IMG/VR virus record: IMGVR_UViG_2534681912_000004
Source: a virus
Taxonomy: Duplodnaviria; Heunggongvirae; Uroviricota; Caudoviricetes
DNA length: 7,188 bases
Direction: 5' to 3' (one strand)
Positions 1-7,188 of this stretch are shown piece by piece (the first letter of the stretch is position 1; each line of letters starts with the position of its first letter). The position numbers and the translations under genes were made by a program. Under the pieces are notes generated by a model. It was not told where the DNA came from and did no database searches. It worked only from the letters and a program-made list of their open reading frames with translations.

Positions 1-165
1 CTCAACATCCATGCTGTAACGCCCGGCTTCATCCGGATTTTCAGAGGCCACCGTGTTCACCAGTACCGTGGTGCTGTTACGCTTTGCCTTCAGTTGAATA
101 GTGCAGTTCTGTATTGGTTTTCCCGCACCATCTTTCAGCACACCTGAGATTTTTACTGCTGCCAT
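1..165 (-). CDS. stf: Side tail fiber protein, N-terminal 55 codons (5' partial; gene continues past the left edge of the window)
   Basis: ATG at 165-163 preceded by GGAG (174-171, 5-nt spacer). The frame is open to the window edge and translates MAAVKISGVLKDGAGKPIQNCTIQLKAKRNSTTVLVNTVASENPDEAGRYSMDVE, which closely matches my recollection of the lambda Stf N-terminus. Absent from the ORF track because the fragment is under 60 aa. Confidence 0.8.
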   Translation of the reverse strand, partial: MAAVKISGVLKDGAGKPIQNCTIQLKAKRNSTTVLVNTVASENPDEAGRYSMDVE

Positions 166-175
166 ATCCACTCCA

Positions 176-203
176 CAAAAAAGCCCGCCTGAACCGGCGG
201 GCT
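176..203 (-). terminator. Rho-independent terminator candidate between lom and stf (minus-strand orientation)
   Basis: Inverted repeat agcccgcc (182-189) / ggcgggct (196-203) with 6-nt loop. On the minus strand the 8-bp GC-rich stem is followed directly by a T-run (reverse complement of the A-run at 177-181). Lies 27 nt downstream of the lom stop and directly abuts the stf RBS. Confidence 0.6.
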
Positions 204-229
204 GTCATAACACTGTGTTACCTGGCTAA

Positions 230-829
230 TCAGAATTTATAACCGACACCCACGATGAAACCGTCAGTGCGCCAGTCACCACTGCCGGAACCTTCATAAG
301 CAAGGTCAATGGCCACGGATTCGGTCGGGTTAAACTGCACGCCAGCCCCCCACGCCAGAGACGTGTTGCTGTGGCGACCGTCATCACTTCCAGTCAGCAC
401 ATCGTGCGTTTTCCCCTTGCTGTCAGTTACGCGGAGATAATCCCCGGAGAACGTCGAAACACGGCTGTAAGCCACACCCGCCATCGCATAAGCACTGAAC
501 CATTCATTCACGCGTACAGACGGCCCCGCCATCATGCTGAACCAGCGGTTACGCACTGAATCTTCATGCCAGCGGGTATCGCTGTAATGCGTTTTTTGCT
601 CATCTTTGGCATTGGCATAACTGAATGACGTCACCAGCCCCAGCGTGTCCGTAAATTCATAACGGTATTTCACGTTAATGCCCTTCAGGTCATCGTTGCC
701 GGGCATATCAGTATGGGTCTGAAGATACCCGGCGCTTAGTGTGGACTGATGCTCTGCTGCGCTCGCTGGCGTACCAGCAGCAACCAGCCAGACTACTGCG
801 GACAGAATAACAGCACATAATTTACGCAT
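230..829 (-). CDS. lom: Outer membrane protein Lom (Ail/Lom/OmpX/PagC family beta-barrel), moron-type lysogenic conversion gene
   Basis: 199-aa ORF with N-terminal signal peptide (MRKLCAVILSAVVWLVAAGTPASA, AXA-type cleavage site) and C-terminus ...DLAYEGSGSGDWRTDGFIVGVGYKF ending in an aromatic residue as in OMP beta-barrels. Internal blocks (KGINVKYRYE, SAYAMAGVA, YEGSGSGDWRTDGFIVGVGYKF) match lambda Lom as I recall it. RBS GAGAGG upstream of ATG at 829; TGA stop at 232-230. Confidence 0.9.
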   Translation of the reverse strand: MRKLCAVILSAVVWLVAAGTPASAAEHQSTLSAGYLQTHTDMPGNDDLKGINVKYRYEFTDTLGLVTSFSYANAKDEQKTHYSDTRWHEDSVRNRWFSMMAGPSVRVNEWFSAYAMAGVAYSRVSTFSGDYLRVTDSKGKTHDVLTGSDDGRHSNTSLAWGAGVQFNPTESVAIDLAYEGSGSGDWRTDGFIVGVGYKF

Positions 830-850
830 AATTACCTCTCGCTTTTCTGC

Positions 851-877
851 AATAAAAAAGGCGTCATTTCTGACGCC
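851..877 (-). terminator. Rho-independent terminator candidate between J and lom (minus-strand orientation)
   Basis: Stem ggcgtca (860-866) / tgacgcc (871-877) with 4-nt loop. On the minus strand this reads GGCGTCA-GAAA-TGACGCC followed by TTTTTTATT (reverse complement of 851-859). Sits 20 nt downstream of the J stop (TGA at 899-897). Confidence 0.65.
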
Positions 878-896
878 CGTATTGGGGTTATAAAAT

Positions 897-3800
897 TCAG
901 CTGATACTGATGCCTGCGGTGGCTTTCTTCATCACCACAACCAGCAAATCGCTGATACTTGCTGTGGGATACCAGTCATTTACCAGCCATGCTGACACCG
1001 AAAACTCCAGCGTCATGTGACCGTGACCGGCAGGCATATCAATAACGCCACTGTAAATCAGCGTATTATCCAGCGCGGTACGGTTATAAATTTCAGCACC
1101 GTTTTTCCGCACTATCAGACGGCATGAGGAGTAAATATCAGTATGCTCTCTCTCATGTTTAGCGCCGCTGAATGCCACCGCCGGAATAACAATCTGCCGG
1201 TCAAACGGCTGATCGTCATAAATCCTGACGGTAATGGTCCCTGATGGCCACCGTTCCGGTGCACGGGAGTCCCGGGGGAAAGCTTTGCCCACTGTTTTAA
1301 CGAGATCGCCTTCAATCTGGTTCGCGGACAGTTTTCCCAGAACCCGGCAGTTCTCGTTAATCGTGACGTTGTTGAGCGTCCCGGAGTTCGCATTCACGTT
1401 ACCGCTGATATCGGCATTTTTCGCCGTCAGCCGCCCGTCCGGTGTCAGGGAAAATGCCGGAGGATTACCGCCGCTGGTAATGGTGGGAGCCGTCAGATAT
1501 TTCAGGAACACTTCATTCATAAATATCTGATCGCCCTGACCAACAAACATCGGCTTTGTGTTGCCATTCGCAGGATTAACCATCGCAATCCTGTCCGCCG
1601 CCAGCAGCACCTGACTCTGCATGCCGTCAGGGGTGTTCTCAATACCGGCACCAATACCCGCGATATAAAGGCGTCCGTCCTGCATCTGCTGCAGCTTCAC
1701 AGCCCACATGCTGTTCAGGTTATTATTTGTATCAACCTGAACCTTCTGTATCTGCTGGATCGCTGCACTCTGGTCTTCCAGTTTCTTATTGACGGTCTGC
1801 GTGATTTCATTACTGACATCCGTGATGGACGTTCTGATTTCCGCCAGGTCAGGCGCAAGCTGACCGTTATCAATCTGCGTCCACAACTCCTGAGCCAGAT
1901 GGGTTTTCCCTATCTCTCCTTTGAAAAAATCCAGATAGCCGGATGCATCATCACTCGGCTGGCCAACAGCCTCCACGAATGCCGATTTGCCAACGGTGTT
2001 CACACTGCGGATGTAAAAATAATAATCATGGCCCGGCTTGATATTGATACTGGCAGCTATCCAGTACAGCGCCGTGCCAAGATAGCGGGCTGTGGTTTCA
2101 ACCTGCCTGATATCCGCAATCCGCTTTTCCGAGAACCAGAACTCAAACTGTACCGTCGGATCATAAACGGCAAGATACGGCGTGGCGGTTATCTGAAAAT
2201 AGCCCGGCGTCAGCTCAATCCGCGACGGCGCTGCCGGTGCGGCAATCCGGAACGATACCGATGCCGGATCGCCCTGCTGCCCCCAGGCATTTGCCGCCCG
2301 GACTGTCAGCCTGTAGTTTCCCAGCGCCAGTTGCGTGAAGCGGTATGTGGTTTCCGTCGTCCTGGCCGTGCTGACCAGCCGCTCACTGCCGTCATCCGCT
2401 GCCACGGTCAGACGAAGCATAAAGCTCACGCCCTTCACCACCTTCGGCGTGTCCCATCGCGCCAGCACCTGATATTCCCCGCTGTCTGCGGTGACTTCGG
2501 CGGTCAGGTGCTGCACCGCTGGCGGCGTGACACCATTCACCGTGCCGCTCTGGTCGCCGTCAAAGTGCGCCCCGTTATCCACGATGGCCTCTTTCTCCGG
2601 CACATGCTGCACGGCGGTGATGGCATACGTGCCGTCGTCGTTCTCACGGATACTCACGCAGCGGAACAGTCGCTGGCGCAGCGTCGGCAGCTTCAGCCCC
2701 CATACGCTGTATTCAGCAACACCGCCAGGAACACGGCTCACTTTTACCTTCACGCCGTCGGTGACGGACTGAACCTCCACGCTGACCGGACTCCCCTGCC
2801 CGTCAACCAGGCTTATCAGCGTGATGCCGGAGGATGGCAGCGTGATTTCACGGTCGAGCGTCAGCGTCCGCGTCTGGCTGTTCACCGCCAGCACCCCCCC
2901 GCCGATGCTGATACCCGCATAGTCATCATCACAGATTTCAATGACATCGCCCGGTACATGGCGAAGCCCTTCGGCACCCACGCTGAAGTCCACGGTCTGC
3001 GTTTCCAGCAGCTCCGTTTTAATCAGCCACAGCCCGGCGCGGTGTGCCTGCCCCCGGCTGGTACAGCCAAAGGCATCCATCTTCGTGACGTTACGACCGT
3101 AACGGGCAATGGCCTGCGTATCCTCAACAAGCTCTGTCGCCGTCTCCCAGCCGTTATCCGGGTCAATCCAGTTCACCTCAACGGCATTATGGCGGTCCTT
3201 CAGGGCGCTGAAGCTGTAGCGGAACGGCGCGCCATCATCCGGCATCACCACATTACTGCGGTTATAGGTCCACACCTTATCCGACGGTCGGTCCTGCACG
3301 AACGTCAGCGTCTGCCCGTTCCATACCGGCATACAGCGCATCGCCGAGCAGAAATCACTGAGCACATCCCACGCCTTGCGCTGTGTGGTCAGGTACGCAT
3401 TACAGGTGATGCGCGGCTCCGTGCCGCCAAAGCCGTCCGGCACTGACTGGTCGCAGTACTGGCCGATGACATACAGCGCCCATTTGTCCACATCCGCCGC
3501 ACCAAGACGTTTCCCCATGCCGTAGCGTGGATGGGTCAGCATATCCCACAGACACCAGGCCATGTTATTGCTGTATGCTGGCTTAAACGTTCCGTCCCAG
3601 ATACCGCTGTATTGCCGAGTCTGCGGGTTATAGTTCGACGGCACCTGCAGAATACGCCCGCGCAGATGATAATTACGGCTCACCTGCTGGCTGCCGAACT
3701 GCTCCGAATCCACCTGTACGCCGACCAGTGCCGTGTTCGGGTAGCACTGTTTCACATCGATGATTTCGGTGTATGACGACCAGAGCGTTTTGTTCTGCAG

Positions 3801-4376
3801 CTGGTCTGTGGTGCTGTCCGGCGTCATCCTGCGCATCCGGATATTGAACGGACGCGGCGGCAGGTCACCCACCACCACCGATGCCAGATACTGTGAGGTG
3901 GTTTTGCCTTTAATGGTGATGTCTTTTTCCGTCACCCAGCCACCATTACGCTGTATCTGAACCAGCAGGCGGACTTCCGACGGATTCCGGTCCCCCTTTG
4001 AGGTGGTTTCCACCAGTGCCTGCACACCGAAGGTAAAGCGCAGACGGTCGATGTTTGCCGACGTGATGGTCCGGGTAATCGGCGTGTCGTACTTCACTTC
4101 CGTACCCAGCACCGTCTCGGAGCCGGAGGATTCAAATCCCTCCGGCGGTGTCTGCTCCTGCTCACCGGCCCGGAACACCACCGTGACGCCGGATATATTG
4201 GTATTCCCCTCACTGTCCAGCACCGGCGTACTGTTCAGCAGCACGCTTTTTAATCCATCCACCGGACCTTCAACCGGCCCTTCGCTGATGGCATCAATCA
4301 CACTCAGCAGCTGCGTGGACTTCAGGTTGTCCTTCGCTTCGCGCGGGGTATGCCCCTTACTGCTGCCTTTACCCAT
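897..4376 (-). CDS. J: Tail tip central fibre / host specificity protein J (1159 aa)
   Basis: Single 3480-nt ORF. N-terminus [34 protein letters not shown]... and long internal stretches match lambda gpJ as I recall it (about 1132 aa). ATG at 4376 preceded by GGAG. Position between I and lom is syntenic with lambda. The C-terminal third differs in composition (see findings). Confidence 0.95.
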
Positions 4377-4398
4377 TCGTCATGCTCCATAAACGATA

Positions 4399-4418
4399 AA
4401 ACCGCCCGGAGGCGGTTT
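4399..4418 (-). other. Short GC-rich hairpin in the 60-nt I-J intergenic spacer, function unknown
   Basis: Inverted repeat aaaccgcc (4399-4406) / ggcggttt (4411-4418) with 4-nt loop. Not followed by a clean T-run on the minus strand, so not a classic terminator. Lies about 20 nt upstream of the J RBS. Confidence 0.3.
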
Positions 4419-4436
4419 CACATAAAACATTTTGCA

Positions 4437-5078
4437 TCAGCGACCAATCACCACAACCTGACCACCATCACCTTCATCTGCCGTGCTGATCTCCTGAGAA
4501 ACCACACGTGACCCCACGCGCATTTCACCGTACAGAACCGGCAGAACATTGCCCTGGGCAACCATGTTATCCAGTGAAGAAAAATAGGTGTTCTGTTTGC
4601 CGTTATCCGTTGTCTGTGTGCGGGGGGTTTTGGGTTTAGGGGCCAGCATCTGTGCAACACCGCCAAGCGTCATACTGGCACCGAGAGAAAACAGCAGATT
4701 ACTCGCCATAATTCCTACCCCCGGCATCCATATAGCAACCGCCATAACAGCCGCCCCCAGCACAGCCTGAAACACACCGCCACTTTTGGCTCCTGCCAGA
4801 CGCGGCACGATATGGATCACGGCACCATTTGCCAGCGGCTCATTAAGACGGGCAGACAATTCGGTTTCACCTGCATCACGCCCGGCAATGCGTACCTGGT
4901 ACCAGCCGTCGCTCAGTTTCTGACGAAATGCCGGGATCTGCATGGCCAGCGCCCGGATGGCTTCGGACCCCGTTTTCACTCGAAGGTCGATGCGGCGGCC
5001 AAATCGTTGTAAATCCCCGTAAAGGCAGATGCGTGCCATGCCCGGTGACGCCAGAGGGAGTGTGTGCGTCGCTGCCAT
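4437..5078 (-). CDS. I: Tail tip assembly protein I (213 aa): N-terminal ubiquitin-like domain plus hydrophobic segment
   Basis: ORF translation MAATHTLPLASPGMARICLYGDLQRFGRRIDLRVKTG... and C-terminus ...NTYFSSLDNMVAQGNVLPVLYGEMRVGSRVVSQEISTADEGDGGQVVVIGR match lambda gpI as I recall it. Start is 103 nt inside the 3' end of K in another frame, which I recall is also the lambda arrangement. RBS-like GAGAGAGG upstream, with a rather long spacer of about 11 nt. Confidence 0.9.
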   Translation of the reverse strand: MAATHTLPLASPGMARICLYGDLQRFGRRIDLRVKTGSEAIRALAMQIPAFRQKLSDGWYQVRIAGRDAGETELSARLNEPLANGAVIHIVPRLAGAKSGGVFQAVLGAAVMAVAIWMPGVGIMASNLLFSLGASMTLGGVAQMLAPKPKTPRTQTTDNGKQNTYFSSLDNMVAQGNVLPVLYGEMRVGSRVVSQEISTADEGDGGQVVVIGR

Positions 5079-5719
5079 TTGTCGGTGTACCTCTCTCGTT
5101 TGCTCAGTTGTTCAGGAATATGGTGCAGCAGCTCGCTGTCACCACAGTAAATGGCGGCATGATTCGGCACCGATGAACCAAAACAGCACAGCAGCACATC
5201 GCCCGGCTGCGCCGCTGACAACGGCACCTGATACAGCCCTGTGGCCTCCAGATTATCCAGATAGAGATTCTGACCGTTACGCCACCAGTCATCCCCGCGA
5301 TGAAAATCCGGCATCTCAATTCCCGCCAGATGGTAAGCGTCCCGGAACAGCGTGTAACAGTCCGTTACCCCGTGCTCAAAGCGCCGCCCGGTGAGATGCG
5401 GCACACAGCGGAATTTATGAATCGCCCCCCGGCAGACCAGCCACCACGGCAAATCACTCTGTACCTGCAGCCGCCGGTCGGCCTCACTCAGCCAGGGCAG
5501 ACCACCGGGGTGGCTGTGGACCAGCGCCACAATCTCTCCCTGCATTTCTGCACTCAGCCAGTCCTCCGGCGACATCCGGAAATACTCCTCCGGCTCACCG
5601 GAGATATTCACGCAGGGAAAATATCTTTCCTCCTCCGGCGTTCTCACCACGAAGCCGCACGACTCCGCTGGCGCACATCGCCGGGCGTGCGCCAGAATCG
5701 CTGATTCTGTCTCTGTCAT
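4976..5719 (-). CDS. K: Tail tip assembly protein K (JAMM/MPN metalloprotease-like domain plus NlpC/P60-like domain). Longest ORF is 247 aa; alternative internal start at 5575 would give 199 aa
   Basis: Translation contains an exact JAMM motif HSHPGGLPWLSEAD (H-x-H-x7-S-x2-D) and an NlpC/P60-like Cys-His region (GVTDCYTLF ... NHAAIYCGD ... LLHH). Position between L and I is syntenic with lambda. The start at 5719 lies 5 nt after the L stop but has no obvious SD. The internal ATG at 5575 has a strong GGAGGAG SD 9 nt upstream. Confidence 0.85.
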   Translation of the reverse strand: MTETESAILAHARRCAPAESCGFVVRTPEEERYFPCVNISGEPEEYFRMSPEDWLSAEMQGEIVALVHSHPGGLPWLSEADRRLQVQSDLPWWLVCRGAIHKFRCVPHLTGRRFEHGVTDCYTLFRDAYHLAGIEMPDFHRGDDWWRNGQNLYLDNLEATGLYQVPLSAAQPGDVLLCCFGSSVPNHAAIYCGDSELLHHIPEQLSKRERYTDKWQRRTHSLWRHRAWHASAFTGIYNDLAAASTFE

Positions 5720-5724
5720 GGGAT

Positions 5725-6423
5725 TTACTGCGAAAGTTTGTTAATGGAAAGGAAGCTGCCAAAGTTGCCGACATTATTGCGAAACTTACAGCCACTCAGG
5801 CATTTGCTGCATTTATCCTTCGTGATATCGGACGTCGGCTGGTCATATTCATCCGCGACCGCCGGACCGTGATAACCGCACTCATCGCCGCGATAGGTCC
5901 AGGTGCAGGTGTTGGCCAGCATGATACGTCCCGGAAAAACAGCGCCATCCGTTTCAGTCGGCGTGGACAGTACAAAAGAGGCACTGACCGCGCTCAGTTC
6001 GCTGCACTGCTCGATGCGCCAGCGGCTGATCACCTCCTGCTCCGGATCGGCTTCGCTGTTTCCGTTGACGAAGTTCACCGCATCCAGAAAGCGGGCGTAA
6101 ACCTTACGCCGGACCACCGTTCCGCCGACCAGACTCTGCAGATCTTCCGCCATCCCGGTGATCATGCCGTGCAGGTTAGAGACCGCCAGTGTCGGACGGG
6201 CAGCACTGCCCTTGCCGTTCATCTCAAATCCACTCCCCTGAATGGGATAGGCCTGATACTGCCGACTCTGCCAGGTGACAGACTCACCTTTTTCGTTCTG
6301 CTCATTACAGAAAAAGTAGCGATCCCCGCCTACCTCGGTCAGGTCGATTTCCCAGAGCACCACGCTGGCCGACTGCTCCGCACGAATGCATTCATTCAGC
6401 GTTTCCTGTTGTATGTCCTGCAT
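5725..6423 (-). CDS. L: Minor tail / tail tip protein L (232 aa) with C-terminal cysteine cluster
   Basis: Translation MQDIQQETLNECIRAEQSASVVLWEIDLTEVGG... through ...CSKCLSGCKFRNNVGNFGSFLSINKLSQ is near-identical to lambda gpL as I recall it. Its ATG overlaps the M stop (TGATG at 6425-6421). Confidence 0.95.
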   Translation of the reverse strand: MQDIQQETLNECIRAEQSASVVLWEIDLTEVGGDRYFFCNEQNEKGESVTWQSRQYQAYPIQGSGFEMNGKGSAARPTLAVSNLHGMITGMAEDLQSLVGGTVVRRKVYARFLDAVNFVNGNSEADPEQEVISRWRIEQCSELSAVSASFVLSTPTETDGAVFPGRIMLANTCTWTYRGDECGYHGPAVADEYDQPTSDITKDKCSKCLSGCKFRNNVGNFGSFLSINKLSQ

Positions 6424-6761
6424 CAGATCACCACTTCGTCAAACTGACACGAAAAATCGGTATAGGTGATATGTTCTGTCGCTGACCACGTTCGACACAC
6501 CACTCTGATTTTTCTGTTAATACCCGGCGGGCGCCAAAAAAAAGATTTATAGCCTTCATGCCGGGCTAAAAATTTTTCAAATGAATCACGTTCATTCGCC
6601 TCAACTTTGAAATCACAGGTGAAAACGCGCAGAGAATGATTAAGTCCATTTGGACTTCGTTGCTCATAACCATCGCCAAATCTTACAGTTTTTATCGATG
6701 GTTTATTTTCTGTTTTCATTCCATCCTCTGGTAACCAGTGAAATTCTTCCGTATTAGCCAC
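6423..6761 (-). CDS. M: Minor tail protein M (112 aa, GTG start)
   Basis: ORF with conserved core TVRFGDGYEQRSPNGLN...KSFFWRPP...FDEVVI resembling lambda gpM (KVRFGDGYSQRAPAGLN...KSFLWTPP...FEQVVN, from memory). The N-terminal F-x-W...PEDGM aligns with lambda F-R-W...KPGM, supporting the GTG at 6761. Alternative ATG at 6719 (Met15). Stop overlaps the L start. Confidence 0.85.
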   Translation of the reverse strand: MANTEEFHWLPEDGMKTENKPSIKTVRFGDGYEQRSPNGLNHSLRVFTCDFKVEANERDSFEKFLARHEGYKSFFWRPPGINRKIRVVCRTWSATEHITYTDFSCQFDEVVI

Positions 6762-7095
6762 TTAACATTCCCCCATCACGTCGCATATTTAACAGATTGC
6801 CCTGCACCCGCTGATCAACCATCCCCATAAGTGCTTTTATTGCCTGAGGGCCAATCTCTCCATTCTGGCCGTCATTTTGAATAGTGATTTGGTATACAGG
6901 GGCATAGGTAATATCTCCGCCTCCATTACCACTTTTACTATTAACAGCTCTGACACCAAGAGAACCATCGGAAGTTCGTGTTAATGGCATAATGGCTTCC
7001 GGACCAGCCTCACCAAAAACACCAGCCCCTCTTGCAAAAGCAAAAAATTGCGGGGAATCATAAATTGAACCGCCCCGGGTTTCCTGGAGAGTATT
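6754..7095 (-). CDS. H: Tail tape measure protein H, C-terminal segment (114 codons open; frame blocked upstream by in-frame TAA at 7098-7096 and TGA at 7110-7108)
   Basis: Translation ...GGSIYDSPQFFAFARGAGVFGEAGPEAIMPLTRTSDGSLGVRAVN...ITIQNDGQNGEIGPQAIKALMGMVDQRVQGNLLNMRRDGGMLSG resembles the C-terminal end of lambda gpH (...VVINNDGTNGQIGPAALKAV...MRDGGLFSGGGR, from memory) and the widespread FxxGG...GExGPEAI tape-measure motif. The ORF track reports only the last 78 aa from an internal ATG at 6990. Stop TAA at 6756-6754 overlaps the M start region by 8 nt. Confidence 0.7.
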   Translation of the reverse strand, partial: NTLQETRGGSIYDSPQFFAFARGAGVFGEAGPEAIMPLTRTSDGSLGVRAVNSKSGNGGGDITYAPVYQITIQNDGQNGEIGPQAIKALMGMVDQRVQGNLLNMRRDGGMLSG

Positions 7096-7188
7096 TTATC
7101 TGTGAACTCAGGCTGCCAGATCATCGTTTCCGATGGAAGCATAATAAGCTTTTTCTGCTTCTGCCGGAGGAGTATGGCCCAGCCTTTC

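Follow-up and report, generated by a model that had tools for sequence, protein, structure and literature searches.

The window, by which is meant the whole stretch of 7,188 nucleotides that was analysed, carries on its minus strand a tail-tip module of the lambda type, next to which lies the 3′ end of a tape measure gene. Taken 5′ to 3′ on that strand, i.e. from right to left, the module comprises an intact gene for the minor tail protein M (6423–6761; 112 aa, GTG start, Pfam Phage_min_tail with E 1.2e-31, the product being WP_000024051.1 in loci L001, L002 and L014), followed by L (5725–6423), K (4976–5719), I (4437–5039/5078), J (897–4376; 1159 aa) and Lom (230–829), all of which appear in the ORF list as open minus-strand frames, and finally by the first part of a tail fibre gene of the prophage (minus strand, 1–165; MAAVKISGVLKDGAGKPIQNCTIQLKAKRNSTT...), which is cut by the left edge and has its counterpart in the “prophage tail fiber N-terminal domain” entry at L014 45683. 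The labels L, K, I, J and Lom are taken from Pfam matches of the neighbour gene calls together with the annotation of the comparator, an intact Rac-type prophage located at ttcA in E. coli TUM14771 (locus L014). Over 7,065 aligned bases the window differs from this prophage by 153 substitutions and no gaps (97.8% identity); M, L, K, I, J and Lom are all open, and the alignment reveals no premature stops in the retained tail genes. Antisense to J there is also a 515-aa ORF (plus strand, 1899–3446) that is rich in Arg, Pro, Ala and Gly, has no family match on record and, in one public assembly (L008 3736–5283), was even taken for a gene; it looks like a spurious frame.

What is present of the tape measure gene, which is of the lambda H type, occupies 6754–7065 on the minus strand and comprises codons 975–1077 of 1077, that is 103 amino acids and the stop codon TAA at 6756–6754. 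It lies upstream of M and overlaps it, as expected for the order H-M-L-K-I-J (checked against L014), and the overlap of 8 nt between its stop codon and the GTG start of M at 6761 is the same as in the intact prophage. The remnant has neither a start codon nor a ribosome-binding context of its own, and the gene caller takes an internal ATG at 6990 instead (78 aa). At the DNA level, window positions 7065–6754 are collinear with L014 38783–39094 with 0 mismatches, and many E. coli genomes contain an intact tape measure gene that matches the remnant at 100% identity. In the intact 1077-aa relative the Pfam families TMP_2, TMP_4 and Tape_meas_lam_C are all found upstream of the point where the remnant begins, while the 103-aa remnant on its own matched no Pfam family; its identity is therefore drawn from DNA collinearity and from tblastn, which gave matches of 98–99% to the “tail length tape-measure protein H” of E. 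coli phages (siphophages), 66% to the tape measures of Stx phages and about 50% to those of the lambda-like HK106/HK633. These matches bear out the label “H-like C-terminus” given to the region in the original prediction. A functional gene of this type is one long reading frame that carries the tape measure domains and whose length scales with that of the tail; only codons 975–1077 are found here, and the remnant cannot act as a length ruler.

Two stop codons and the end of an insertion sequence

Attention had been drawn to this region by the appearance of a tape measure gene broken by two in-frame stops. Translated on the minus strand from 7188 to 6754, the frame in question reads ERLGHTPPAEAEKAYYASIGNDDLAA, stop, VHR, stop, NTLQETRGGSIYDSPQFFAFARGAGVFGEAGPEAIMPL...RRDGGMLSG, stop; the two internal stops, TGA at 7110–7108 and TAA at 7098–7096, lie 12 nt apart (start to start), and the frame is open on either side of both. 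A second minus-strand frame, rich in Lys, Leu and Arg, is open from the edge to about 6983. In all these respects, both as to the stops with their two open frames and as to the K/L/R-rich frame, translation agrees with what was originally described. What was not recognised is the origin of the sequence to the right of the remnant.

When window positions 7188–6400 were used as a megablast query against 5,426 complete E. coli genomes, the match fell into two parts that meet at query positions 123/124. Query bases 1–123 (window 7188–7066) matched IS3-family transposase genes at thousands of places, and query bases 124–789 (window 7065–6400) matched uninterrupted genes annotated “phage tail tape measure protein”, together with M, at up to 100% identity. 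On the minus strand, window positions 7188–7066 are the terminal 123 bp of an IS629/IS1203-type member of the IS3 family: they hold the 3′ end of orfB, which encodes a DDE/rve transposase (7108–7188, cut by the window edge), consisting of its last 26 codons (ERLGHTPPAEAEKAYYASIGNDDLAA) and the stop codon TGA at 7110–7108, followed by the non-coding right end of the element with its terminal inverted repeat (IRR; 7066–7107), which contains the TAA at 7098–7096 and ends ...CCCGGGGCGGTTCA at 7066. The last bases of the element in the window are thus ...GGTTCA, and position 7066 is followed directly by the first tape measure base at 7065, which maps to L014 38783. Written across the junction, AACCCGGGGCGGTTCA runs straight into ATTTATGATTCC; in the alignment the window tracks the IS as far as 7066 and the intact tape measure gene from ATTTATGATTCC (7065) onwards.

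A complete copy of the element is available in locus L004, a 725-kb metagenome-assembled ENA contig that does not contain a single N and has 18 substitutions relative to the window. The IS in this contig is 1,310 bp long, is bounded by TG...CA inverted repeats and lies in the same orientation as the tail genes; its orfA (108 aa) matches Pfam HTH_Tnp_1 (6e-13), and its orfB (295 aa) matches rve (5e-28), HTH_21 and rve_3 and ends in exactly the 26 residues ERLGHTPPAEAEKAYYASIGNDDLAA. It is 96–97% identical to the copies in L001 and L003, for which the RefSeq annotation records a programmed frameshift and an AL1L pseudoknot, and the coding organisation and length of an IS3-family element are in evidence (an orfA with HTH and an orfB with DDE/rve domain, joined by −1 programmed frameshifting, in a total of ~1.3 kb), of which the window itself holds the last 123 bp only. 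The inverted repeats, of the form 5′-TG...CA-3′, can be seen by combining the two sources: the IRR of the window, read on the plus strand at 7066, is TGAACCGCCCCGGGTTTCCTGGAGAG, and it pairs with the IRL of L004, TGAACCGCCCCGGGAATCCTGGAGAC, at 23 of the first 26 positions. The same end as in the window also bounds the IS in L001, L003 and L015. In L001, the element annotated “IS3-like element IS1203 family transposase” ends ...GGCAGCCTGAGTTCACAGATAAAACACTCTCCAGGAAACCCGGGGCGGTTCA and then gives way to an unrelated flank; there is one difference from the window within the GGCAGCCTGAGTTCACAGATAAAACACTCTCCAGGAAACCCGGGGCGGTTCA stretch, and the IS1203 right end of L001 as a whole differs from the window at only a couple of positions.

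The first “in-frame stop” is thus nothing other than the stop codon of the transposase orfB itself, and the second is part of the non-coding end of the IS. The stop pattern is fixed IS-end sequence and not a chance feature, all 123 bases being identical to the complete IS of L004; that the frame of orfB happens to coincide with that of the tape measure gene is a 1-in-3 coincidence. It follows that the open stretch 7095–6754 is not H-like throughout, as had been supposed, positions 7095–7066 being IS terminal inverted repeat and H starting only at 7065, and equally that the frame upstream of the stops does not belong to H but is the C-terminus of an IS3-family OrfB transposase.

The junction itself is not confined to the window. 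Ten loci (L004–L013) were found through the internal 78-aa ORF of the remnant, which public assemblies list as a gene, and an exact 40-mer spanning the junction is present in 10/10 of them. Searches elsewhere gave a different picture, in that the exact junction is absent from the 5,426 complete E. coli genomes, where there were only two-piece matches at other insertion sites, and an exact 32-mer of the junction had 0 matches in GTDB species representatives. A promoter/terminator scan of the junction yielded nothing above shuffle expectation on the coding (minus) strand.

These results bear on several explanations for the stops that do not involve an IS. The arrangement of an open frame, two stops and a further open frame, all in a single register, does have the superficial appearance of a continuous tape measure gene interrupted by point mutations or a frameshift, or by sequencing errors. 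However, what lies upstream of 7065 bears no resemblance to the corresponding part of the intact tape measure gene, being base for base the right end of IS1203/IS629 with the C-terminus of its transposase, and the identical junction recurs in ten assemblies, produced independently, so that this explanation has next to no probability left. The original view that a simple +1/−1 frameshift would be insufficient has thus proved correct, given that what lies upstream of 7065 is not tape measure sequence at all.

A second suggestion, that an AT-rich H-3′/M cassette was grafted in from another phage by mosaicism, takes its cue from base composition, as the GC content of H-3′ and M in the window (0.40–0.46) is lower than that of L-K (0.52–0.63); with it may be considered the suggestion that the tape measure gene is naturally split. 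In the intact relative, however, the entire 3.2-kb tape measure gene and M are of low GC (0.38–0.52), L-K being at ~0.56–0.63, and the jump to about 0.58 falls at the M/L boundary (~6423 in the window, ~39425 in L014), some 640 bp away from the stops. Moreover, the remnant is collinear, without mismatch, with the 3′ end of intact single-ORF genes, and no relative with a two-ORF tape measure was seen. Both a graft and a split gene are therefore very improbable, and the GC step, which the intact prophage also shows, is an old mosaic boundary between tail modules that has nothing to do with the IS. Frameshift, split gene, sequence error and AT-rich graft were all rejected on the grounds just given, namely the IS end upstream of 7065, the ten assemblies, the GC profile of L014 and collinearity. 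Of the four options originally put forward, a pseudogenised H in a defective prophage gives the right outcome, while its premise, a gene broken by two stops, does not hold: the first 974 codons are absent and the IS end abuts codon 975, a cause that was not on the list.

The flanks of the element and the missing 33 kb

The window is 100% identical over 6,435 bases to locus L005 (GCA_000261405.1, scaffold JH768587.1), in which a run of 1,130 Ns (4673–5802) lies inside the IS. Window base 7188 corresponds to L005 5803, the first base past this gap. The right edge of the window was thus evidently set by an assembly gap, and it is because the N-gap of L005 ends there that no more than 123 bp of the IS are included. 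The linkage of recE, IS and tape measure gene rests on scaffolding in L005 and is gap-free within the single contig of L004. In both of these loci the order is a PF01171 gene, integrase, DUF1233, DUF1187, RecT, DUF3799, IS, remnant and M-L-K-I-J-Lom.

In L004 the 5′ part of the tape measure gene is not found to the left of the IS, where genes for RecT and a DUF3799 protein lie instead. The left flank (L004 bases 1–4615) corresponds to L014 735–5349 (99.76% identity) and ends within recE, while the right flank corresponds to L014 38783–45094 (97.8%, ungapped). For comparison, the intact prophage of L014 runs from ttcA through intR, xisR, rcbA, ralR, recT, recE, racC, ydaE, kilR, sieB, the regulators and ydaT-U-V in its left part, and then through lysis genes, trkG, terminase, head, tail tube, ydaY, the tape measure gene, M-L-K-I-J-Lom and the tail fibre in its right part. 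The left end that is typical of a Rac-type prophage, intR-xisR-rcbA-ralR-recT-recE next to ttcA (the Rac integration site; PMC4632033), is thus found outside the window, in L004, which shares the junction.

Between the L004/L005 flanks, the counterpart of L014 5350–38782 is absent, 33,433 bp having been replaced by one IS, a size that is measured against the single intact relative L014 and not against the true ancestor. Relative to L014, the segment that is missing takes in 974 of the 1077 tape measure codons and the 5′ part of recE, along with racC, kilR, sieB, the repressor region, the genes for replication and lysis, trkG, terminase, head, tail tube and ydaY. An inducible, complete lambdoid prophage has genes for immunity, replication, lysis, terminase, head and tail shaft, and these are not found between the flanks. 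At the left breakpoint, recE (L004 3232–4615) keeps its C-terminal 461 codons (1,384 of 2,601 nt), and the recT gene downstream of it is intact. The longest reading frame left in the truncated gene is one of 409 aa, from a TTG start 154 bp from the IS, and a scan found no promoter-like site between the IS and the truncated recE in L004; together with the scan at the junction, this lends no support to the idea of IS-driven expression on either side.

The IS in L004 is flanked by ...GGTTCC on its left and ATTTATG... on its right, so that there is no target-site duplication (TCC vs ATT). A simple insertion of an IS3-family element generates a duplication of 3–4 bp, as in L001, which has AGG on both sides. 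The missing duplication is no argument against the identity of the IS; it shows instead that the two flanks did not start out as neighbours, and it is the signature of deletion or of recombination between IS copies. Another small feature of the flanks is that the trinucleotide ATT comes just after the recE and the tape measure breakpoints alike (L014 5350–5352 and 38783–38785, the latter being window 7065–7063); this may be mere chance (1 in 64), or it may point to a preferred target or to microhomology in the deletion.

One could still suppose that the element is a simple IS629/IS1203 insertion, with the 974 5′ codons lying intact beyond it, and that the linkage to recE is a mis-join across a multi-copy IS. 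Just such an insertion in the same gene exists in L001 (239–4785), where IS1203 sits in the tape measure gene with an AGG duplication and a 663-nt 3′ remnant, both halves of the gene being annotated; the interior of the IS in L005 is an N-gap, and 8 of the 10 junction loci begin inside the IS and are uninformative as to the left flank. Against this, the L005 scaffold and the gap-free L004 contig, which were produced independently, give the same order of recE, IS and tape measure gene, the lack of a duplication (TCC vs ATT) argues against simple insertion, and no complete E. coli genome pairs the junction with the tape measure 5′ half on the left. On balance a mis-join seems unlikely.

A probable IS-associated deletion and what it implies

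With a probability of roughly 0.9, the window can be read as the distal, tail-tip portion of a lambdoid E. coli prophage of the Rac type, integrated at ttcA, in which an IS-associated internal deletion has occurred. One IS629/IS1203-type element of 1,310 bp now stands between a recE truncated at its 5′ end and tape measure codon 975, the ~33.4 kb that separate these two points in intact relatives having been lost. There are two routes by which such a deletion may have arisen: homologous recombination between two IS copies in the same orientation, one of which would have been in recE (target TCC) and the other in the tape measure gene (target ATT), or an adjacent deletion of transposase/IEE type that extended from a single IS copy. 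The identity of the IS end, the position of the junction, both flanks with their lack of a target-site duplication, and the size of the missing segment in comparison with L014 have been shown directly; the route is something that we can only infer, as the sequence cannot tell the one from the other. Both are established behaviours of insertion sequences; in E. coli O157, IS629 is behind many gene inactivations and genomic deletions, and IEE-dependent events include deletions, adjoining the IS, that range from a few nt to >40 kb (PMC9943667). Among the complete genomes no precursor allele or intermediate of the two-copy route was found, nor was there an identical recE–IS left junction, although independent IS insertions or deletions occur nearby in DLI.6n and O145 strains. 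Whichever route was taken, the expected outcome would be a prophage incapable of virion production, in which a promoter-less and start-less pseudogene of 103 codons is followed by intact M-L-K-I-J-lom.

Other insertions have occurred in the same prophage type. Apart from the L001 insertion, L003 (2133–4595) has an IS with a 474-nt tape measure remnant and a foreign left flank, and L015 (strain DLI.6n, NZ_CP103974.1, 10687–20097) has a truncated recE, an IS and a truncated tail terminator, with a second IS inside the tape measure gene. Overall, the Rac-type prophage and its tape measure gene show independent IS3-family hits at at least 4 positions in different E. coli lineages, and one independent truncation of recE lies only 62 bp from the recE breakpoint that is linked to the window; such repeated hits suggest a local hot spot or repeated adjacent deletions.

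The retained genes vary somewhat among the loci that share the junction (L004, L006–L013), with up to ~4% synonymous-site differences that lie in patches within J and K (window 897–5719); the ~800 bp adjoining the junction are invariant, pN/pS is 0.07–0.15, and there are no premature stops, frameshifts or indels. The patchiness suggests gene conversion with other lambdoid prophages, or else chimeric metagenome contigs, and selection acting on the remnant would explain it no better than recombination or a mixed metagenome consensus. The low pN/pS of the retained genes is thus not taken as evidence of function.

A more speculative reading is that recE′-recT and M-L-K-I-J-lom-stf are being kept as a unit for RecET-mediated swapping of host-range genes by the host or by co-resident lambdoid phages. 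The C-terminal 461 codons of RecE that are present here presumably include the nuclease domain that is sufficient for RecE activity, and the patchy variation in J and K, the pN/pS of 0.07–0.15 and the lack of frameshifts and stops are compatible with ongoing exchange. A low pN/pS can equally reflect import from functional phages or a mixed-metagenome artefact, and such a role is to be regarded as unlikely. That an IS3-family element marks the site of a large deletion in a cryptic prophage of the Rac type is already known, and amounts to ordinary prophage decay.

No new biology is implied, and the practical consequences of the preferred reading, an IS-associated deletion, concern annotation above all. 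What gene callers present as a 78-aa ORF is a fragment of a tape measure pseudogene, and the peptide upstream of it is a piece of transposase; the prophage should be described as a defective Rac-type remnant that cannot form particles. More generally, where a window is bounded by an assembly gap inside a repeat, the end of an IS can mimic a puzzling gene break. The repeated strikes of IS629/IS1203 on the Rac-type prophage and its tape measure gene add to prophage domestication and decay.

Comparison with known systems

In relation to tape measure proteins of the lambda gpH type, the remnant corresponds to the C-terminal 103 residues of such a protein and overlaps M just downstream; it differs in encoding only 9.6% of the protein and in having no start codon of its own.

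The prophage resembles the cryptic Rac prophage of K-12, a defective prophage at ttcA that retains int-xis-ralR-recT-recE and tail-distal genes, in its ttcA neighbourhood and its early-left genes, the DNA of which is 99.8% identical to that of the Rac-type prophage L014, and also in being a remnant without morphogenesis genes. Rac of K-12 likewise keeps only a fragment of the tape measure gene (tmpR/ynaA), adjoining lomR and stfR; its immunity, kilR and trkG region, which is absent from the prophage described here, has presumably been kept. The two would differ in the end points and the cause of the deletion, which here is marked by a single IS3-family element and leaves recE truncated at its 5′ end.

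The closest parallel as regards the element is provided by IS629/IS1203 in the lambdoid prophages of, for example, O157, O145 and O111 strains, with which it shares the length of 1,310 bp, the orfA and orfB joined by programmed frameshifting, and the TGAACCGCCCCGG... inverted repeats, as well as the choice of prophage genes as targets, their inactivation and the occurrence of a multi-kb deletion beside the IS. It is set apart from these known cases by the particular junction between recE (L014 5349) and tape measure codon 975, which none of the 5,426 complete E. coli genomes contains; the junction is a specific allele, and no new phenomenon.
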